From: an uncultured virus (IMG/VR IMGVR_UViG_2724679563_000003)
Taxonomy: Duplodnaviria > Heunggongvirae > Uroviricota > Caudoviricetes
Length of the DNA stretch: 35,222 nucleotides
Direction: 5' to 3' (one strand)
IMG/VR virus record: IMGVR_UViG_2724679563_000003
Location: 124,001-159,222 of that record
This document shows, piece by piece, positions 2,966 to 25,466 of this stretch. How positions within the stretch are numbered: the stretch's first letter is position 1; each line of letters opens with the position of its first letter. Under the pieces are notes generated by a model. That model saw only the letters and a program-made list of their open reading frames with translations, made no database searches and had not been told where the DNA came from. A program made the position numbers and the translations under genes.

Positions 2966-3036
2966 ATATGTATTTCCCCTTTCAATTTTCAAGAATATTT
3001 TATTAAATTATTTTATTTTAGTATTAATTTTTTATA

Positions 3037-6330: not shown

Positions 6331-8031
6331 TTAACTTATTTTCTTGTTATGTAATTTCAAATAATCCTCGTAATACATCCATTTTAAATTTTCTCCTGTA
6401 ATTGGATGTATACCTGTTGATTTTCTTTCTCCTTTGCAGCACGAACTCACTTTGCTTTTAGTCAATAAATATTTTTTTTCAGCACTTACTATAGAATTAA
6501 AAATTTCATTAGTAGTTAAACAAATTATAGTTCTGGCATTTTTACCACCGACCTTTCGACTATTACTTCTTATTTCTTGCTTAGGATTATAATTGCACCA
6601 ATTAATTTTACTTCCGATTTTTAAATATCGTATGACAGTACCTCTTGATAATTTAGATTTTATAGCTATATCTTTTGTGCTATGTATTCCATTTTCCCAA
6701 TATGTACAAATTTCTTTTACTCTATTTGATAAAGCAAACTTTTCACATTCATACCAATTTATTTTATTTAAATTAAAAATCTTAGACAATTGAGATTTTA
6801 ATAAATTTTGTTTTATTATATCCAATCCTATATTACTAGTATTAATTACTATGTATTTTTCATGTTTCACACCATTAGCTACAGCTAAGTCTTTTTTTAA
6901 TCTATCATTTTGTTGTTCTAATTCTAAAGAACGACCTCTGCCTGTATATCTATAATGTTGACCTCCATGTGTTTCTATTATACAATTTATTGATGGTATA
7001 AAAAAATCATACCTTTTATTTCCATTCAGTTTAGAATTTTGACATTTAATATTTTTACTCCATTCAAACTCTTTTTCTATTTCAAATTCTATATGTAGTT
7101 GATTTAAAACATTAAAAACAAATTTTTCACCATAAGATTTTCCATCGCTACATTTTGAACAAGAAAATCCGTATATGTATAAGTGACTTATTTTCATCTT
7201 TTTTTTATATCCACAATCTGGACACATCATTAAAATTTTTTTATTACTCGAATAACTATATTTATAAATGTCTTCTATATTTACAAAATATTTTGTTAAA
7301 TACGGATGCGTTGTAGCAATGTCATTTATTCCTCTTACTACTTTTCTACAAGGAATACAACATACAGGGCATATACCTCTATTATCTTTTAAATGAGCTT
7401 CTGATGTTTTTCCAATATAACCACATTTTAAACATTTATAGTTATATCCTTTCCGAGGAGCTTGTTCCCCATTTTTCACTTTAATATAATTTATAATTTT
7501 TACACCTTTAACAATATCTTCTTTATTATATATGTATTCATCTGTTCTTTTTCCTAATATAACATTTAACTTACCTGTTAACAGTGTTTGTGTTGTAATC
7601 ATAAAAGTTTTACTATTATAAATAATTTTTAATTGTTGATTTTTCGAATCATAATTTAATACTTTTAATTCTCCTATTATATCTTCACATTTAAATTTAA
7701 TTTTTTTATTAATAGAGTTTGTCCAATTAACACCTTGTTTTGTGTTACCAACTTCACTAACATCTATATATCCGTTTTCAGTAGTTATTTTTGGGTTTAA
7801 AGTTATTAATTTGCTTATTTTATTTTCTATTAAACTTGCTCTATCTATAAAATTTAAATTTTTATTATACATCAAGCAAATTTTTCTTCCATCATAACTA
7901 ATTATTTTAAATTCGCCATTAATATTATCATAAATAAATGGAATTATTGATCCTATTGAATTTTTCCAATCTATTATTTCTTTTCCCAATCTATATTTTT
8001 TAGGTAAATTATTTAAAAATACTTTTTTCAT
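6331..8031 (-). CDS. Free-standing homing-endonuclease-like protein: zinc ribbons, VSR/DUF559-like PD-(D/E)xK nuclease, C-terminal NUMOD1-like HTH
   Basis: CLKCG/CPVC/CPDCG/CSKC pairs; SYGEKF...RYDFFIP..NCIIETHGGQHY...NDRLK; C-terminal ICLTTNEIFNSIVSA...VSSCCKG. Confidence 0.75.
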   Translation of the reverse strand: MKKVFLNNLPKKYRLGKEIIDWKNSIGSIIPFIYDNINGEFKIISYDGRKICLMYNKNLNFIDRASLIENKISKLITLNPKITTENGYIDVSEVGNTKQGVNWTNSINKKIKFKCEDIIGELKVLNYDSKNQQLKIIYNSKTFMITTQTLLTGKLNVILGKRTDEYIYNKEDIVKGVKIINYIKVKNGEQAPRKGYNYKCLKCGYIGKTSEAHLKDNRGICPVCCIPCRKVVRGINDIATTHPYLTKYFVNIEDIYKYSYSSNKKILMMCPDCGYKKKMKISHLYIYGFSCSKCSDGKSYGEKFVFNVLNQLHIEFEIEKEFEWSKNIKCQNSKLNGNKRYDFFIPSINCIIETHGGQHYRYTGRGRSLELEQQNDRLKKDLAVANGVKHEKYIVINTSNIGLDIIKQNLLKSQLSKIFNLNKINWYECEKFALSNRVKEICTYWENGIHSTKDIAIKSKLSRGTVIRYLKIGSKINWCNYNPKQEIRSNSRKVGGKNARTIICLTTNEIFNSIVSAEKKYLLTKSKVSSCCKGERKSTGIHPITGENLKWMYYEDYLKLHNKKIS

Positions 8032-8041
8032 TTTATACCTA

Positions 8042-8087
8042 CTCCTTTAGGAGGTGTAGCTACACTTTATTACTTGCAAGTTCTCCT
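8042..8087 (-). promoter_or_regulatory. Structured translational leader of the endonuclease gene
   Basis: On the mRNA: AGGAG (8083-87), palindrome ACTTGCAAGT (8072-81), palindrome GTGTAGCTACAC (8054-65), CTCCT (8049-53), true SD AGGAG (8042-46). Confidence 0.55.
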
Positions 8088-8140
8088 TTTGTTTTATCGA
8101 ATTATTTTTTATTTATGATAAAATGTTTATTTTAAATTAT

Positions 8141-8168
8141 TGTTTGCAATATCTTTGAATTACGAATT
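8141..8168. repeat. 28-bp dif-like (11-6-11) site S1
   Basis: TGTTTGCAATA-TCTTTG-AATTACGAATT; overlaps stop codon 8167-8169. Confidence 0.6.
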
Positions 8169-8376
8169 AATCAACACCTACTTCTTTTACAGTTCTTTTA
8201 TTTACATTTACATAAAATTCTTTATCATTATTTCTTTGAATATTTTCAGCAATATCCACTATATCATCAGTCATTTCAACACATTCTATTGCATATTCCC
8301 TATCTTCATAATCATTCATTGGTACTCTAACCACACCTTTAATTAAAACTTTCATTTCATAATATTTTTTACTCAT
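8167..8376 (-). CDS. Small hypothetical protein (cassette-like)
   Basis: 69 aa, AAGGG SD, bounded by S1 and S2. Confidence 0.7.
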   Translation of the reverse strand: MSKKYYEMKVLIKGVVRVPMNDYEDREYAIECVEMTDDIVDIAENIQRNNDKEFYVNVNKRTVKEVGVD

Positions 8377-8389
8377 TTAATCAACCCTT

Positions 8390-8417
8390 TCTCCGCAATA
8401 TCTTTGAAATGTGTCAC
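8390..8417. repeat. 28-bp dif-like site S2
   Basis: TCTCCGCAATA-TCTTTG-AAATGTGTCAC; shares 14 bp gcaatatctttgaa with S1; touches stop codon 8417-8419. Confidence 0.6.
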
Positions 8418-8575
8418 TAACTTTCCCTATTATTAGGAATATCAACCGTTGTTGAAATTGTTGGCTGTCTATCTATAATATTTTTCAAACAAATCATTAA
8501 ATTAGCCTGTTGCATGAACTCTAAATCGTTACATTTTATTTCTTCAAAAAGTTTATCAGCATCTATAAATCTCAT
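8417..8575 (-). CDS. Small phage protein of the MR(L/F)IDAD type
   Basis: Start moved to ATG 8575 behind AAGGAG SD; MRFIDADKLFEEI...IIDRQPT. Confidence 0.7.
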   Translation of the reverse strand: MRFIDADKLFEEIKCNDLEFMQQANLMICLKNIIDRQPTISTTVDIPNNRES

Positions 8576-8592
8576 TTTCTTAGCTCCTTTCT

Positions 8593-8620
8593 TATTCACA
8601 ATATAATCAAATTGGGAATT
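8593..8620. repeat. 28-bp dif-like site S3
   Basis: TATTCACAATA-TAATCA-AATTGGGAATT; overlaps stop codon 8619-8621 in the same register as S1. Confidence 0.55.
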
Positions 8621-8780
8621 ATTCCTCGTATTCAAAGTCATAACAATCATGGTCTAAGACTTCAACTATCCCATTTTTATCTTTAATAATTTCGTGACCT
8701 TCTAAACAAATCCAATTACTTTTTTTATCTTCACAAACACAATTTTTACAATCCAAACAATCATTTTTATTAATACTCAT
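8619..8780 (-). CDS. Small Cys-rich protein (53 aa)
   Basis: Not in track; GGAGG SD; MSINKNDCLDCKNCVCEDKKSNWICLEGH...DCYDFEYEE. Confidence 0.65.
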   Translation of the reverse strand: MSINKNDCLDCKNCVCEDKKSNWICLEGHEIIKDKNGIVEVLDHDCYDFEYEE

Positions 8781-8793
8781 ACTTCCTCCGTTT

Positions 8794-8821
8794 ATTTTAT
8801 CTTTATTTCAAACTGCGAATT
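8794..8821. repeat. 28-bp dif-like site S4 (left arm degenerate)
   Basis: ATTTTATCTTT-ATTTCA-AACTGCGAATT; overlaps stop codon 8820-8822 in the same register as S1 and S3. Confidence 0.45.
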
Positions 8822-8966
8822 AATTGCTTCTGTCTTTTGATCGAAATATCTCACATTTCTTTATATAATTGCAAGGCGTTCTACTTCCCATAATACCTAA
8901 TATTTGTCTACAATTATCGTCTTTATCTCTAAAAAAACAAATATCACATTTTTCTCTTTGCTCCAT
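8820..8966 (-). CDS. Small Cys-rich protein (48 aa)
   Basis: Not in track; GGAGG SD; MEQREKCDICFFRDKDDNCRQ...PCNYIKKCEIF. Confidence 0.65.
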   Translation of the reverse strand: MEQREKCDICFFRDKDDNCRQILGIMGSRTPCNYIKKCEIFRSKDRSN

Positions 8967-9051
8967 TATTAACCTCCCAACTGTTTTTCATGATTCTATT
9001 CGTTTTACTTTCCATTGTTAAATTGTTTTATGTTCATATAAAATCCTCATT

Positions 9052-9684
9052 TTAACTAAAATTGATAAATTGAAATTCTTCGTTATTATTACTTTCTTCA
9101 CTATAGCTATTTATGTCTGTATCAAAATCTAATCTTTTATATGTAAACCCTATTACATCACACCAATCTATATTATGTATTTCTAAGTTATATAATAAGC
9201 AGTCATATAAATTTCTTTCAATGCCCATTACACCTATATGAACTTCCTTAATTTTAAATTTTTCAATAAACATAGCTGCTATTTTACTACATTCATTTAA
9301 ATTTTCACTTAGCTTTATAGAATAACATTTTTCTTCCATTCTATCTTTTATGCTTATATATGTATAATATCCTCGGTATTCTCTTCCTGTTGATATATCC
9401 ATTATTAATTCATTTGATTTATTATTTAGTCGTTTTACTTTTCTTTCTTCTTTTTTCAGTAATTCTTTCTTTTCCTTCTCCCATTGATTAAAATATTCTT
9501 GTTCATTTGGGTTAAGTAATTTTTTAGGACATCCACCACACTCATTCCTATTATGATTACAACCCCAACAAGGATTTTCACCTCTTTGGATCAATCCCAT
9601 TATTAATACTCCTGTTAGTTTGCATTTTGATGGTACATATCCTTGTTTAATACACAATTCTCTTAAAGTATCATTGTTCTCCAT
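9052..9684 (-). CDS. Hypothetical protein with Cys-rich N-terminus
   Basis: 210 aa; C..C..CWGC....CGGC; GAGGGG SD. Confidence 0.75.
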   Translation of the reverse strand: MENNDTLRELCIKQGYVPSKCKLTGVLIMGLIQRGENPCWGCNHNRNECGGCPKKLLNPNEQEYFNQWEKEKKELLKKEERKVKRLNNKSNELIMDISTGREYRGYYTYISIKDRMEEKCYSIKLSENLNECSKIAAMFIEKFKIKEVHIGVMGIERNLYDCLLYNLEIHNIDWCDVIGFTYKRLDFDTDINSYSEESNNNEEFQFINFS

Positions 9685-9705
9685 TTAAAATATCCCCTCT
9701 TTAAT

Positions 9706-10218
9706 TTATTTTGTATTTTTCATTAAAGTGTCAAATAATTTTTCTAATTCTTCATAAGAAGTATTGTCTAAGAATTGCATATGTTTATCCCTATCTTCTT
9801 CACTTAATTCTTTCATACTTCTTATAGCATTTTTTAATATATGTCTATAAAATTCTTTAGATTCTTCTTTTTTAAACTCTGCTTTTCTCTTATTATAATC
9901 AGCTTTAAATTCATCTGATGTATTTTTGTCTGTAATTATAAACCATTTACCTTCTCTAAATCCTCTTTCTACTACTTTATAAGAAGTTAAATTAGAATTT
10001 TTAATCTCATCATATCTTATGTATTGTCCTATTTCATCATCTTTATTTTTACCAAACAATATTTCATGTTTACTACCTTCTGTTTCTACTACGAATTTCT
10101 TTTTTAGTAAATTCCAAATTACATAATCGACATCTACTGATTCTAACTCTTTGTAATACCAAATTGGATATTCATTTCTTTCTACAAACTTCTTATTTAT
10201 TGTTTCTTCAGTATTCAT
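9706..10218 (-). CDS. Hypothetical protein
   Basis: 170 aa, AGGGG SD. Confidence 0.75.
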   Translation of the reverse strand: MNTEETINKKFVERNEYPIWYYKELESVDVDYVIWNLLKKKFVVETEGSKHEILFGKNKDDEIGQYIRYDEIKNSNLTSYKVVERGFREGKWFIITDKNTSDEFKADYNKRKAEFKKEESKEFYRHILKNAIRSMKELSEEDRDKHMQFLDNTSYEELEKLFDTLMKNTK

Positions 10219-10272
10219 CTAATCGCCCCTTTTGCATTATCATTTATTAAATTATTTTAAATTAATGAAATT

Positions 10273-10512
10273 TTAATTTTCCTTATCAATTGTCATTATG
10301 TCTAAATATTTTTTTATGTCTTCTTCTGATACCCCAATTTCACTTGCAGTTTTAAATATTTCTCTAAACATTTTTTCTGTACTATAGTCGAAGTAATCTT
10401 TGTATATTATCTCAACCTTTGATTTGTTATGTATACAATATTTACAAAAATCACTCCTTTTATCTGTTTTACAAATATCAAATTTTTCACAGTTTATTAT
10501 CATATTAATCAT
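10273..10512 (-). CDS. Small Cys-containing hypothetical protein
   Basis: 79 aa (start may be ATG 10503); CxxxxxC...CKYC. Confidence 0.65.
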   Translation of the reverse strand: MINMIINCEKFDICKTDKRSDFCKYCIHNKSKVEIIYKDYFDYSTEKMFREIFKTASEIGVSEEDIKKYLDIMTIDKEN

Positions 10513-10798
10513 CTTCCTTTTTAAAATAATTTACTATCCCTTTAATTAGCAATAATAAATTTAAAATAGGTGTCATATATACTAAAAATATAAAAAAGTA
10601 ACCTATTAATGGATTAGACATACTAGTATTTATTAATCCATTAACAAAATTGGTCAACTTTTCATTATTCAGTTCCTCTAAACTTTCTTGTATTGAGTTA
10701 AAAGCTTCAAATGGGTCTATGTTTTGATTCATATTATTTATTTTATTTATTATAAAAGCCATTGCTCCTATTACAATATTTAAAGTAAGTAAACTCAT
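10505..10798 (-). CDS. Hypothetical membrane protein
   Basis: Two hydrophobic segments; AGGGGTG SD. Confidence 0.65.
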   Translation of the reverse strand: MSLLTLNIVIGAMAFIINKINNMNQNIDPFEAFNSIQESLEELNNEKLTNFVNGLINTSMSNPLIGYFFIFLVYMTPILNLLLLIKGIVNYFKKEDD

Positions 10799-10879
10799 AT
10801 TCTCACCCCTTTAAAACATCACTTTTGACATTTATTATACATTAAAATCTCATTTTAATAAAATAATGGTTTTAACCTG

Positions 10880-11314
10880 TTACTTTTTCTTTTTATGTCT
10901 TTCTATCTGTGCTTTACTTATTCTTTCATATGCACACTTCGGACAGCGAGTGCCTCGAAGGAAATTATCTGGAACTACATCCCACTCATCATAGCCACAT
11001 ATATTATGTTTCATTCTTATCTTTTCATTGCTTTTTTTATATTTGCCAATTACAGTATATTCATCACCAACCAATTCATGAACTTCCTCTACAAACTTTT
11101 GGTGTGATTTTTTCCCACCTCTATGGCATTTAGGACAGCGAGTTGATTGTAAAAACTTGTTAGGGATTACATCCCATTCATGTTCGCATTTATTATGTTT
11201 CATTGTTATTTTTATATCACCTTTTATATACTTACCAAGTACACTATATTCGTCACCTACTAAATCATAAACTTCCTTTTGAAATTGTTCTTGTGTTTTA
11301 CATGTTTTCATCAA
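10880..11314 (-). CDS. Tandem zinc-ribbon (DUF723/CapR-like) repeat protein, no nuclease domain
   Basis: Two ~65 aa repeats K(T/S).E.F..EV..LVGDEY.V.GKY.....KI.MKHN.C..EWDV.P..FL..TRCPKC. Confidence 0.7.
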   Translation of the reverse strand: MMKTCKTQEQFQKEVYDLVGDEYSVLGKYIKGDIKITMKHNKCEHEWDVIPNKFLQSTRCPKCHRGGKKSHQKFVEEVHELVGDEYTVIGKYKKSNEKIRMKHNICGYDEWDVVPDNFLRGTRCPKCAYERISKAQIERHKKKK

Positions 11315-16953: not shown

Positions 16954-16981
16954 TCTTCACTTAATTTTTGAATTGTTACTT
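16954..16981. repeat. 28-bp dif-like site S6
   Basis: TCTTCACTTAA-TTTTTG-AATTGTTACTT; overlaps stop codon 16980-16982 in the S1/S3/S4 register. Confidence 0.45.
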
Positions 16982-17327
16982 ATGGTGTTTCTATTCTTAC
17001 GCAGATACATTTCACCCAACCATATTCAGCAACTTCTTTTTCCGATGCTTTTGCCACTTCTTCATCTGTCATGTTTTCATCCCAATCACCATTATCCATT
17101 GCATCTTCAATAAGTTGTTCTGCATCTTCAGACCTGAAATATATCCTTTCCTCATCACACCAATATTCATCAACTTTAGCTTCTCCCCATGAACCTAGCC
17201 ATGAACAATAATCATCACTTGCACAAACCTCATAATTCACCATAGGCACTATTTCTAATTCATGATTTTCATTTATTAAATTTATAAGAGTTTTAATGTT
17301 TGCTTGTTGATTTTCTATTTTTTTCAT
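16980..17327 (-). CDS. Acidic hypothetical phage protein
   Basis: 115 aa, GGAGGG SD; LINENHELEIVPMVNYEVCASDD..SWLGSWG. Confidence 0.8.
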   Translation of the reverse strand: MKKIENQQANIKTLINLINENHELEIVPMVNYEVCASDDYCSWLGSWGEAKVDEYWCDEERIYFRSEDAEQLIEDAMDNGDWDENMTDEEVAKASEKEVAEYGWVKCICVRIETP

Positions 17328-17496: not shown

Positions 17497-19122
17497 TTAT
17501 TGCAACATTAATATTTGATTAGGTTTATATATGTAATAATCTGTATTTCTCATAGTCTTTTTATAACTTTCTTTCCCCTCAAACTCATCAATCACTTGTT
17601 TTTCCTTCTCAGACATATCTTCATATTTACATTTACCATAAGAAAAAGGCAACCATCCTTTTTTACAACTCCCGAAAATATTGAATTTTTTTAGTAATTC
17701 CTCATTCAAAAATGTTAAATGAGTAGTGCCTTTTTTATATGTATTTATTTTAAAATATTTGGTTTCTATATTTTTAGTTTGTCTCTCCTTTTCTGCCTCA
17801 TCTAATATTTCTTTTAAATTTGTATTCTCTGTTTTTCCTCCATCTAAGTAATCAAAAACATGCTCTATATCTTTTAATTTCTCATAAAATTTATATCCAT
17901 AATCCAATCTATCACCTAGTATCCCATAAGCAGACAAAGGAACTATTATGCGTTTATTAATTTTAAATGCAGAATTACTACTCCAACCATTGTAATAATG
18001 AATATTTTTACTACATTCCTTATACCAACTATATTGACTAGAAAACTCTTCGAATAAGCTTAAAATTGTGTCCTCTACCCCTTTGACTACATTTTGATTC
18101 ATCTGCTTTTGTAATTCTTTTATATTATATAAACTAAAATCGTAATCTTGTAATTCAGTTAATTTTTGTCTAAATTCATTTAATAAGTTTGATGTTAATA
18201 ATTTTGTGAATTTTTCATTACTAAATAAAGCTTCCCAGTATTTATATCTAACCTTTTTTACATAAGCATTTGTCAAAGTATCATCTTGTATGGTATTATC
18301 ATATTTTTCTCCATTAATTGATAAATGCAAAATAGAATCATTAAAACAACTATCTTTTTTAAAACTCTTTAATACCAAAGGTCGTAAATTATAATATTCA
18401 TTTATTAATTTTATTCCTGCCTTTATTTCAAAGTTGTATTGTTGAACTATCCCTGTTAAGAAATCTCCATCAATTAACGCATTATTATTTTGTTGGTTTT
18501 GTTTATTAATCATTTCTTCTTGTTTTAGTTTTTCTAATATAACGCTATCTTTGTTTTTATTTTTTATCTTTACTTTTATTAATGCGACTTCTACATTAGT
18601 CTTTCTTTCTGCATTGATAAATTCTTCTTGTAAATACTCTATATTTGCATTATATTTGTTTAATCTTTTTAATAATACTTTTCTCAAATTACTATATGGA
18701 TTTTTTATAGTTTCTGCATTAATTAAACAAATAAGCCTACCACCATTTTCTATCAATTCTAATGCTTTAGCTAGATGATTATCTCCTTGAGAAAACGGAA
18801 AATTAGCTACAATTAAATCATATTTCTTAAATCCATTATAAGTTAAAAAATCATTATGAATAACTCTGAACCCTTTTCCTTTTAATATCATTTGTAAATT
18901 TTCATCAATTTCAATACAATCTATGTCATATTTAATGTCTTTGCTACTAAAAAAATCATTTCTTCTTTGTACCTTTTTCTTTTCTTTTATTATTTCAACT
19001 ATATCGCCTTTCCCCGCAGATGGCTCTAATATTGTTTTTACTTCTCTAAAATCTATATCTTCTAACATTTTATTTATTAATTTTTTAGGTGTTGGATAAA
19101 AATCCTTATTATTTTTAAACAT
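17497..19122 (-). CDS. DUF4942-type class I SAM-dependent (amino) DNA methyltransferase
   Basis: DFYPTP, motif I ILEPSAGKG, CIEID, DFL, motif IV variant ANFPF; C-terminal YFKINTYKKGTTHLTF....LKKFN typical of DUF4942. Confidence 0.8.
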   Translation of the reverse strand: MFKNNKDFYPTPKKLINKMLEDIDFREVKTILEPSAGKGDIVEIIKEKKKVQRRNDFFSSKDIKYDIDCIEIDENLQMILKGKGFRVIHNDFLTYNGFKKYDLIVANFPFSQGDNHLAKALELIENGGRLICLINAETIKNPYSNLRKVLLKRLNKYNANIEYLQEEFINAERKTNVEVALIKVKIKNKNKDSVILEKLKQEEMINKQNQQNNNALIDGDFLTGIVQQYNFEIKAGIKLINEYYNLRPLVLKSFKKDSCFNDSILHLSINGEKYDNTIQDDTLTNAYVKKVRYKYWEALFSNEKFTKLLTSNLLNEFRQKLTELQDYDFSLYNIKELQKQMNQNVVKGVEDTILSLFEEFSSQYSWYKECSKNIHYYNGWSSNSAFKINKRIIVPLSAYGILGDRLDYGYKFYEKLKDIEHVFDYLDGGKTENTNLKEILDEAEKERQTKNIETKYFKINTYKKGTTHLTFLNEELLKKFNIFGSCKKGWLPFSYGKCKYEDMSEKEKQVIDEFEGKESYKKTMRNTDYYIYKPNQILMLQ

Positions 19123-19195: not shown

Positions 19196-20110
19196 TTATC
19201 CAATTTCTATTTCATTCGCATATTTTTTCATGTCTTCATCAAGAATATGGGTATACACTTGTGTTGTTGTTATTCTTTTATGCCCTAAAGCTTTTTGTAC
19301 ATATCTTATATTCTTACTTTCTTTTGCTGAAATAGTCGCAAAACTATGTCTTAATTTATGTGCGGTTATATTTTTATCTATATTAGCTATTTTACAACAC
19401 TTCTTAATTACATTATTAGCTTGTGTATCGCTAATATTAAATAACTTACCATTTATTACACCTTCATAATCAATATATCCTCTTATGGCTTCTCTAGTAA
19501 GATTATTTACATACAAAAATCTTTCTTCGTTTCCCTTACCTGATTCTATTCTTATTTGATCTTCGGATATATCTTTCATTTTCAAATCTAGTATTTCACT
19601 TATTCTAAGACCACAATTCAACAATATAGCTATCATACAATAATTTCTTTTTTCTTTTAGACTTCCGTCTTTTGTTGCATTAAGCAATCTTTTACACTCC
19701 TCTACTGTTAAAAATATAGGCTGCGTTTGCTTTAGTTTAGGAGATTCTAGTTCTCTTGTTGGATTTTCTTTTATTACTTTCACTTTTGTTTCTAAATAAT
19801 TAAAGAATGATTTTAATGTAGCTATTTTTCTAGCTCTTGATTTTTCACTGTTCTTTCTTTCATTCTGTAGGTAATAAACAAAATTATATAAATCTTGTAA
19901 TGTTATAGATTGTATTTGATTATCTATTATATCTGATATATCAATGTTTTGAAATTTAATATCTTCTGATACTAAATCTTTATCTAATTTATACCATCTA
20001 AAAAACATTCTTAAATCTACTTCATATCCATCTATTGTATTTTGGCTTTTATTTTTTATACCTTTTAAATATTTGAAAAAATCTTTAACTCTTTCAGGTA
20101 ATTCATTCAT
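19196..20110 (-). CDS. XerC/XerD-like tyrosine recombinase, catalytically intact
   Basis: N-terminal SAM-like domain (SQNTIDGY..DL, SRARKIATLKSFF); GLRISE (R), SGKG (K), AHKLRHSF (HxxR), LGH, TTQVY (Y). Confidence 0.92.
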   Translation of the reverse strand: MNELPERVKDFFKYLKGIKNKSQNTIDGYEVDLRMFFRWYKLDKDLVSEDIKFQNIDISDIIDNQIQSITLQDLYNFVYYLQNERKNSEKSRARKIATLKSFFNYLETKVKVIKENPTRELESPKLKQTQPIFLTVEECKRLLNATKDGSLKEKRNYCMIAILLNCGLRISEILDLKMKDISEDQIRIESGKGNEERFLYVNNLTREAIRGYIDYEGVINGKLFNISDTQANNVIKKCCKIANIDKNITAHKLRHSFATISAKESKNIRYVQKALGHKRITTTQVYTHILDEDMKKYANEIEIG

Positions 20111-20121
20111 TTAAGAACAAC

Positions 20122-20215
20122 TCCTTGTAATTTTTATTTGTTAAATTATTTTATATTAATATAGTAACATGTATTAGAAAAAATTACAAGGATTATTTGA
20201 AAATTTCCTTGTAAT
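20122..20215 (-). promoter_or_regulatory. Recombinase promoter/leader with triple TCCTTGTAAT repeat, plus terminator of the upstream gene
   Basis: TTGTAA (20184-89), 17 bp, TG-n-TACTAT (20161-66); repeats at 20122-35, 20179-92 (inverted) and 20206-15; the last two form a hairpin followed by a U-run on the mRNA. Confidence 0.6.
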
Positions 20216-20236: not shown

Positions 20237-21298
20237 TTATATTAAATCTGCTTTTTTCAATGCATTCTCCCATGAGTCAAATCTATTAATTATAGAATAA
20301 TATTGTTTTACATCTTTAGCTTTAGGTATTTTCCCTAATTGAAGATATTTTGTATTTATTATATTTAATAAATCCTCATCACTATACTTTTTATTACGAT
20401 TAAGTATATCTTCTTTATTAAACCCTGCTTCTACTAATGCATTTTCCCAAGTACCAAAATTCTTAACAAATATATGTTTATGTGAAAAATCTGACATACT
20501 AGGTATTTTCCCTAATTCTTGAGTTTTCTCTTTTATCATATTTAACAAATCTTTTTTTGTATATGTTTTTTTGTATTTTTTTAATTCTTTATTATCAAAC
20601 CCTGCCTTTTTTAAAGCATTATCCCAACCATTAAACCTTCTAATTATAATTGTATAATTTTCAACTTGATAGGACTTTGGTATTTCTCCTAACTCATTAT
20701 ATTTATTTTTAATTTTTTGTAATAAGTCTTCATCACTATATTTTTTCTTTTTTTCATTACTTTTTATTTTCTTTTTCTCTGATTTTATTTCAATTCCTGC
20801 TAATTTCAAAGCATCATTCCATGAATCAAAATTTTTATATACTTCATATTGTAATTCAAATTCTGCCCTTTTGGGTATTCGACCTAATTCATTACATTTA
20901 CATCTTATTAATTCTAAAAGTTCTTCTCGCGTAAATTCTTTATTCTTTTTTAATATTTGGATATCTTTATAACCTGCTAAAATTAATGCATTATTCCATG
21001 AGCCGAACCTTTTAGATATTATCCTACATTGTTTTATTTCTTTTAAATAAGGTATCCTTCCTAATTCTTTAGTTTTACTTCGTATTATGTTTAATAACTC
21101 ATCATCGGTATACTGATCTCTAGATTTATAAATTTCTTCTTTCGTATAACCTGCTTGTTTCAATGCGTTATCCCAAGTCCCGAATTCTTTAACAATTGTT
21201 ATATAAGATTTTACCTCAGCAGTTTTTGGAATCCGACCTAACTCTTTTGTTTTAATCCTTATTTTTTCTAATAGTTCTTCGCTTGAATATTTTCTCAA
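20237..21298 (-). CDS. Protein of six tandem homing-endonuclease-associated (HNH_repeat-like) HTH repeats, no nuclease domain
   Basis: Six ~60 aa units Y(S/T)xE(E/D)LL..I..K..ELGxIP.......I...FGxWxNAL..AG; TTG start behind GAGGTG. Confidence 0.8.
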   Translation of the reverse strand: MRKYSSEELLEKIRIKTKELGRIPKTAEVKSYITIVKEFGTWDNALKQAGYTKEEIYKSRDQYTDDELLNIIRSKTKELGRIPYLKEIKQCRIISKRFGSWNNALILAGYKDIQILKKNKEFTREELLELIRCKCNELGRIPKRAEFELQYEVYKNFDSWNDALKLAGIEIKSEKKKIKSNEKKKKYSDEDLLQKIKNKYNELGEIPKSYQVENYTIIIRRFNGWDNALKKAGFDNKELKKYKKTYTKKDLLNMIKEKTQELGKIPSMSDFSHKHIFVKNFGTWENALVEAGFNKEDILNRNKKYSDEDLLNIINTKYLQLGKIPKAKDVKQYYSIINRFDSWENALKKADLI

Positions 21299-25250: not shown

Positions 25251-25414
25251 TATTTGTCCTTCATTTCTAATTGCTTTTTACATTCAGAACAATGAATTAC
25301 TGCTTTTCCTGTAATTACTCCATTTGTATAAATACAATCTCCCATAAGACTTTCATCTATAGTATCATTGCCTTTAGAACAGCATCCTTTTTCTTTATAA
25401 TATTTACACTTCAT
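25250..25414 (-). CDS. Small Cys-rich protein (54 aa)
   Basis: Not in track; AGGAGTG SD; MKCKYYKEKGCCSKG...DCIY...HCSEC. Confidence 0.65.
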   Translation of the reverse strand: MKCKYYKEKGCCSKGNDTIDESLMGDCIYTNGVITGKAVIHCSECKKQLEMKDK

Positions 25415-25466
25415 ATAATTCACTCCTGCAACTGTTAGTTGTATTGTGTGTTATAAATACTAATTT

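Follow-up and report, generated by a model that had tools for sequence, protein, structure and literature searches.

The four short sites S1 to S4, which separate consecutive tiny genes in an AT-rich phage-plasmid of Clostridium, are intercistronic spacers and represent short forms of a wider bipartite motif family, and the preferred reading of this family, held with a probability of about 0.5, is that of a regulatory linker which would be read as sequence and would double as a short-homology recombination joint. A previous sequence-only reading had described the same sites as 28-bp dif-like sites of an integron-like cassette array, possibly driven by a Xer-like recombinase; its observation was partly right, while the mechanism that it proposed proved mostly wrong. 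In its full layout the linker consists of a stop codon, about 7 nt, a left box YCRYAAT-TWCAAAKA, a variable stretch of 13-17 nt and a right box TGAAATTATTRYGAAG, which is followed by the Shine-Dalgarno sequence (SD)/ribosome-binding site. The linker recurs between small co-directional genes of the phage-plasmid family and, in a longer form, in the pCLK-like plasmids that C. botulinum and C. sporogenes carry (240-267 kb), and is common to these two kinds of large Clostridium replicons.

The window, that is, the whole stretch of 35,222 nucleotides that was analysed, constitutes the last 35 kb of a 159-kb (159,222 bp) IMG/VR record, termed G000, with a G+C content of 25.5%, and all of its genes are carried by the minus strand. 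A complete relative (G004) of 199,910 bp possesses terminal repeats and encodes tail proteins and an endolysin, and in PLSDB the same family is present as ~200-kb Clostridium botulinum plasmids, two of which (H3 and H4) are 100% identical to a 1.8-kb query; the element is therefore an AT-rich tailed phage of about 200 kb which is recorded as a Clostridium plasmid too. The four-gene unit is placed in an accessory (hyperplastic) region of this phage-plasmid. A search for tRNAs gave none, and a search of a phage collection returned no DNA match and no useful protein match. The genes of the unit and the gene downstream of it are the following.

8820..8966, minus strand: 48-aa Cys-rich gene, the first gene of the four-gene block
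8619..8780, minus strand: 53-aa Cys-rich gene
8417..8650, minus strand: 77-aa ORF, with homology to the N-terminal part of proteins of 115-207 aa from pCLK-like plasmids
8167..8376, minus strand: 69-aa gene, with 18 homologues at 65-88% identity and no family match
6331..8031, minus strand: homing-endonuclease-like gene downstream of the block (phrog_4538, 2.3e-85; phrog_9084 homing endonuclease, 7.1e-24)

For the 77-aa ORF the likelier start is at 8575, which probably reduces it to a 52-aa gene. The Pfam search with the four tiny genes gave 0 matches, and their sole PHROG match was marginal (E 0.0082). Relatives of the 69-aa gene were not found in the JGI metagenomes, and among the GTDB genomes one was found at a single locus, the Clostridium prophage L165; when 387 genomes of the family of L165 were scored, the gene was present in one, the genome of L165 itself.

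Further features were observed in the window around these genes. Within 8035-8080 on the minus strand, shortly before the homing-endonuclease-like gene starts, sits the perfect 12-nt palindrome GTGTAGCTACAC, which is flanked by GGAG...CTCC and followed by AAAGGAG, and which could mask the ribosome-binding site of that gene. The gene at 20237-21298 encodes a 353-aa protein built from six copies of the 'homing endonuclease associated repeat' (PF18780, 2.9e-89). The 144-aa protein encoded at 10880-11314 shows treble-clef zinc finger and CapR-homology matches and is related to HNH endonuclease PHROGs, and its gene contains an internal direct repeat of about 175 nt at 73% identity (11299-11127 versus 11110-10935). 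Adjoining the recombinase gene, the gene at 17497-19122 encodes a protein of 541 aa in which a methyltransferase-like N-terminal part is accompanied by a DUF4942 domain.

The four sites themselves are positioned and built as follows.

8141..8168, minus strand: S1, left box and right arm combined (TAATTCGTAATTCAAAGATATTGCAAAC as read on this strand), following the 69-aa gene
8390..8417, minus strand: S2, left box alone (TAGTGACACATTTCAAAGATATTGCGG), leading directly into the SD
8593..8620, minus strand: S3, right-half element (CCCAATTTGATTATATTGTGAA), which moves with the downstream 52-aa gene
8794..8821, minus strand: S4, left arm fused to the TTTGAAAT right-box core, the weakest member

Much of what had been described at the level of letters holds: all four site strings are exact at their positions in the window, and on the minus strand each site runs from the stop codon of one gene to just short of the SD of the next. 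The common register claimed for S1, S3 and S4 was also confirmed, all three reading TAATTC, and the genes that end in these sites are the only ones among the 231 called genes of the 159-kb record in which TAATTC follows the stop in this way. S1 and S2 do share their central sequence, which lies within an exact 14-nt repeat GCAATATCTTTGAA; the central sequences of S3 and S4 differ, and those of S1, S3 and S4 are mutually different. The proposed inverted repeat stands for S1 and S3 but not for S2 and S4, each of which holds half a site, and across the 159,222 bp only S1 and S3 come within 2 mismatches of TTCGCAAT-N8-ATTGCGAA. The geometry had been given as 11-6-11, whereas the actual symmetry is 8-8-8.

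Taken by themselves, S1 to S4 stand only weakly above chance, because counts of simple patterns across the window are at chance level (12 observed versus 9.5 expected, and 10 versus 7.5) and because the ranks of the sites among the 26,565 pairs of post-stop contexts are mixed: S1-S3 ranks 21, S3-S4 ranks 44 and S1-S4 ranks 530, and the pairs that include S2 rank 7,243 or worse. A 15-nt IUPAC pattern does not provide independent evidence, since it was built from the very sites that it recovered, and a scan of IMG/VR with a 16-nt motif, which gave at least 119 stretches of chance-like appearance, was set aside. It is the wider motif family that shows S1 to S4 to be real.

This family exists as a gene-strand-specific and stop-anchored element with constrained box spacing and a variable middle. 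A sequence-only model was derived from 19 aligned copies, which had been picked by eye from the hits of a loose regular expression, and yielded 59 matches at E<=1 in 599,758 nt, with the 19 training copies counted in; when their orientations were mapped, 58 of these matches fell on the gene strand. An ORF stop is located 0-14 nt upstream in 30 of 45 left boxes, as compared with 37 of 900 random positions, and in 14 of those 30 it falls at exactly 7 nt. The remaining 15 left boxes include 12 with a co-directional ORF stop 15-180 nt upstream, and several of the 15 keep a TAA or TAG in register without a long ORF (>=30 aa) ending there. The same anchoring is seen within the phage-plasmid record: of the TTCAAARAW hits, 7 of 21 on the gene strand and 1 of 15 on the other strand are preceded at a distance of 6-8 nt by an ORF stop. 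TTCAAA occurs 7 times at offset 7 past the stop against 0.92 expected. Additional copies stand behind other genes of G000 and of its relatives, and the model matches the window in two places.

16954..16982, minus strand: extra left-box copy (model E 0.032), directly after the stop of the gene at 16980-17327
25402..25453, minus strand: long-form element (model E 0.0098)

Conservation within the linker is concentrated in the near-invariant columns T-CAAA-A and TGAAAT(TA), which are separated, box to box, by 22-26 nt (mode 24), and the middle is unconserved and falls into three sequence classes. At four pCLK-like loci almost all spacers of the one-way small-gene arrays hold the linker. Whichever box stands last abuts the SD; the copies lie between co-directional genes, and none was seen at the start of an array. 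When the element model was applied to 22 genomes of the genus of L165, with 150 of about 9,000 candidates scored per genome, 1 weak match was obtained. No description of the linker was found in the literature at the level of titles and abstract openings, and Rfam holds no match to it.

Two other elements were observed on the pCLK-like plasmids, namely a RAGATH-18 RNA within a small-gene array (L172 2966-3026, equal to L174 21466-21526; 57.4 bits against a gathering score of 44.9) and a group II intron at L174 6229-7002.

The arms of the linker form an inverted repeat in the consensus only and vary independently of each other. In the arm columns 65.8% of the cells pair, versus 65.8% after shuffling and 24-42% with the partner slid; the covariation score of 0.039 equals the shuffled value of 0.039, and the arm complementarity within an element is 3.34 versus 3.31 in the control. 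A stable RNA or DNA hairpin was rejected, as the folds of S1 to S4 give z-scores from +1.47 to -0.18 versus shuffles and no covariation is present, and a gene unit bounded by terminal inverted repeats, formed by the upstream right box and the downstream left box, was likewise abandoned (complementarity 3.52 versus 3.33, p 0.135). In Rfam 15 the elements have no match at E<=5 and none at the gathering score. Taken together, the invariant blocks, the absence of covariation and the absence of an Rfam match point to sequence-specific reading and not to a helix, and the boxes would most simply be read by a DNA-bound protein, as a promoter- or operator-type signal that might set the expression of each small gene.

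That no promoters are evident between the units, as had been remarked earlier, agrees with the counts in 7000-11000, where 35 sigma-70-like sites were found versus a background of 31.8 and where the genes are co-oriented; terminator-like sites in the same interval number 0. The layout of the linker might be construed as a promoter in which a weak -35 box and a TG-extended -10 box are separated by 16-20 nt, a weak and tentative reading because the hexamers match at 4/6 each, the spacers are long (most often 18 nt and up to 20 nt in the implied promoter) and the elements were not seen at array starts. The short forms in the window retain one box or a fused pair only.

The stop codon keeps its fixed distance of 7 nt also at copies where no ORF of >=30 aa terminates, which fits a role in translation or RNA, or a cassette boundary, better than an operator. 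An intercistronic signal at the RNA level, rather unlikely on the whole, would act in the polycistronic mRNA, for instance as a site at which a bound protein governs processing or stability, or as a translation signal associated with gene starts in the manner of the SAS/ESAS repeats, and the stop codon would form part of it. Such a signal would suit copies that are strictly gene-strand-specific, anchored to the stop codon at a fixed register, terminated by a box that abuts the SD, and placed between co-directional genes and not at array starts; a known structured RNA, RAGATH-18, also lies within the same arrays, and the ESAS repeats (PMC3203893) are likewise one-orientation imperfect inverted repeats with a variable spacer upstream of non-structural gene starts. 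It is opposed by the structural results, given that neither proposed helix covaries, the hairpins fold no better than shuffles, changes at position 13 of the supposed inner helix are not compensated, and Rfam shows no match even at E<=5.

The second half of the preferred reading, in which the linker would serve as a recombination joint, concerns the exchange of genes between replicons. In two of five IMG/VR relatives (L002 and L004) and in three PLSDB plasmids, the four-gene block (8139-9014) is replaced as a whole by an unrelated block of similar length, the first gene of which likewise ends in an S1-like site. Gene order had been expected to vary, and a fixed order of the four genes was one of the refuting conditions set beforehand by the sequence-only reading; within the phage-plasmid family, the four genes stand together in the same order or are all replaced. 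Each edge of the block lies within a copy of P1, another recurrent motif, which reads (TAT)AAAAYAATTTAA(TAA) and has 44 sense-strand copies and 1 antisense copy in the whole record G000.

9013..9032, minus strand: P1-like motif (CATAAAACAATTTAACAATG), upstream edge of the replaceable four-gene block
8125..8142, minus strand: P1-like motif (CAATAATTTAAAATAAAC), downstream edge, where homology with the other allele resumes

Of 84 homology breakpoints, 12 have a P1 copy no more than 30 nt away, versus 1.4 expected under a null that represents random positions and not intergenic DNA alone. The motif sits 20-40 nt ahead of many start codons, often directly after the preceding stop, and its copies in the window include those at 3011, 6294, 10255, 12266, 13327, 16867, 17394, 20149, 27687 and 30795; it is a candidate phage-specific promoter. 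The relative G004 contains, between S1 and the homing-endonuclease-like gene, an extra 81-aa gene (L005 5612-5857) which is absent from G000 and has no S-like site of its own. The alternative block of the relatives G001 and G003 carries, at L002 4988-5228, what appears to be a decayed DNA methyltransferase, split into ORFs of 39 aa and 29 aa.

Across replicons, single genes change their neighbours at the boxes, and in the window the block moves whole. S1 moves with its upstream gene into an unrelated Clostridium prophage (L165), where the 68%-identical homologue of the 69-aa gene retains an S1-like 3' flank. S3 and right boxes move with the downstream gene: the 52-aa gene together with S3 has homologues of 88-93% nucleotide identity in pCLK-like plasmids, where it forms the N-terminus of longer proteins, the S3 flank likewise stands ahead of the homologues in L174 and L176, and the gene below S3 retains the right box in four plasmids and the window, with a left side that changes. 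The 3' homology of one gene stops right after ...ATAATMCAAA, just past the left box, in three plasmids, the 5' homology of another begins at ACAAAGATTGGAGG, a 20-nt deletion lies between two copies of CAAAGATT, and the G0/G1 divergence point is exactly TTCAAAAAT. In the sequences compared, homology between replicons breaks at or within the boxes, and the breakpoints favour the CAAAGAT core, some also falling at the stop codon and at P1.

As regards the mechanism, general recombination might use the ~15-nt boxes as short homologies, with genes swapped from joint to joint, because the same boxes sit at most gene joints; in the window, the four genes would have moved as one block between two copies of P1 (AAAAYAATTTAA). 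The cassette shuffling that had been proposed survives insofar as the joints are the places where gene content changes between related replicons, but not for the block, the order of which is fixed within the family. Several breakpoints on the same CAAAGAT core would also be expected from a fixed crossover site.

The enzymes and sites of known site-specific systems bear on that last point. The dif-likeness ascribed to S1 to S4 was not borne out: compared with the predicted dif of C. botulinum A ATCC 3502 (group I; Kono 2011, as given in Additional file 2 of PMC3025954), with 18 tries per site (9 shifts x 2 strands), the sites reach at best 12-15 of 28 positions, a score attained by 2-20% of the 28-mers of the record. 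Neighbouring sites of dif modules alternate in orientation, giving C and D modules (PMC13141974); S1 to S4 all have one orientation and 58 of the 59 family matches lie on the gene strand, so that the alternation rule of pdif modules does not hold for them. The recombinase that had been suggested as the driver is the sole tyrosine recombinase near the sites.

19196..20110, minus strand: Xer-like tyrosine recombinase, 10 kb from the sites

This protein scores 112.3 bits, in two stretches, against the integron integrase profile TIGR02249 (cutoff 265), about 190 bits against XerD (cutoff 330) and about 185 against XerC (cutoff 335), and by these profiles it is a generic Xer-like recombinase and not an integron integrase. 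No link between it and the sites was found, and its alleles within the phage-plasmid family are 100% or 68% identical. The description as an integron-like array was not borne out either, in that an integron integrase is lacking and the boxes are conserved in sequence, without attC-like folding or covariation. As a cognate site beside the recombinase the sole candidate was a 10-bp inverted repeat with a T-run at 20183-20215, which was rejected since it reads as a terminator. This repeat is perfect, has a 13-nt loop before the T-run, lies between the gene at 20237-21298 and the recombinase gene, and coincides with a G0/G1 homology breakpoint; it is probably a terminator.

Site-specific cassette exchange is an improbable account of the data as a whole. 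In it a tyrosine recombinase, either the element's own Xer-like enzyme or a Xer protein of the host, would act on an 8-8-8 core TTCRYAAT / TCAAAGAT / ATTGYRAA, and left arms would accompany the gene upstream, right arms the gene downstream. An undescribed cassette system of Clostridium megaplasmids and phage-plasmids, with the boxes as its core sites, is just as doubtful; in such a system TCAAAGAT would be the crossover and single small genes would be exchanged, with the stop codon in the left arm and the ribosome-binding context in the right, an integron-like arrangement lacking IntI and attC folding. The geometry of S1 and S3 suits the 8-8-8 core, the central 8 nt are common to S1 and S2, four of six junction sets break at or beside the CAAAGAT core, and the array gene content differs greatly among related plasmids. 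The stop codon moreover lies within the site, which is also common in integron cassettes. On the other hand, the right arm of most family members is about 25 nt from the core or absent, the central sequences of S1, S3 and S4 differ, other breakpoints fall at the stop codon or at P1, S1 follows its upstream gene and S3 its downstream gene, and the four genes never reorder within the phage-plasmid family. To these must be added that the sites are not dif-like, that the recombinase is not an integron integrase, and that, among the 40 tblastn hits listed, with 97 further records outside the list, no close homologue of the window recombinase occurs in the pCLK-like plasmids, which hold the most copies of the element.

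Chance resemblance, by which S1 to S4 would be ordinary AT-rich spacers with a consensus created by the picking of four sites, is very improbable and already largely refuted by the family data, for although the pattern counts in the window are at chance, unrelated gene pairs score similarly and S2 and S4 match only partially, independent copies exist at other gene ends and in unrelated replicons, the strand bias is near-total, the copies are anchored to stops, and the three genes of 231 with TAATTC ends belong to one group of four neighbours.

These large plasmids and phage-plasmids bear long one-way arrays of tiny genes, arrays that vary by strain, and a shared joint motif anchored to the stop codon offers a practical entry point to their construction and expression, as well as a means to delimit their units automatically. 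If the exchange is site-specific, the boxes would define a new cassette system; if it is not, they would supply a further case, in a new host group, of regulatory repeats that drive modular shuffling.

Among the known systems, the attC site of integrons is a 3' site carried by each co-oriented promoterless gene, with conserved ends, a variable middle and a stop codon inside, in arrays that vary; its structure is conserved instead of its sequence, and it folds into an imperfect hairpin. Each ORF of an integron moves together with its attC site, in an order that varies between relatives. The linker resembles attC arrays in that it follows co-oriented and apparently promoterless small genes, has conserved boxes and a variable middle, and belongs to arrays of varying content, and it differs from them in the lack of an integron integrase or a covarying structure and in the movement of its middle and right box with the downstream gene. 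The pdif sites of Acinetobacter plasmids (PMC13141974) possess distinct XerC and XerD arms and a 6-bp spacer, and recombining sites share identical spacers. Short sites flanking small accessory modules on plasmids are common to pdif and to the linker, whereas the linker sites are all direct, show 8-8-8 symmetry and do not resemble the predicted host dif. The stoperators of Cluster A mycobacteriophages (PMC9283540) are single 13-mers bound by the immunity repressor; both they and the linkers are numerous asymmetric sites in short intergenic spaces, oriented with transcription, yet the linker has two boxes and no candidate binding protein.

Closer parallels are offered by two kinds of phage repeats. 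PeSL cassettes of T4-type phages combine a strong sigma-70 promoter with a terminator stem-loop, occur in hyperplastic small-ORF regions and border indels or replacements between close relatives, recombination between the copies shuffling modules (PMC2839356). P1 at both block edges and at breakpoints, and the boxes at exchange junctions, recall this arrangement, although the linker lacks a terminator, a stable stem and a demonstrated promoter, and the PeSL-type role of bordering the block belongs in the window to P1 and not to S1 to S4. The SAS/ESAS repeats of Cluster K mycobacteriophages (PMC3203893) are short one-orientation repeats placed immediately ahead of the starts of some non-structural genes; about half of these repeats bear an imperfect inverted repeat of variable spacer length, and the repeats, which have no known function, are conserved together with the gene family. 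The linker is similar, by analogy of layout only, in its single orientation, its abutting of the SD or start and its imperfect inverted repeat with a variable spacer, and differs in sequence and host, in a left half locked to the upstream stop, in a spacer of 8 to about 31 nt and in marking gene-exchange joints across replicons. ESAS repeats (PMC3203893) and PeSL cassettes (PMC2839356) are the nearest described counterparts of the linker.
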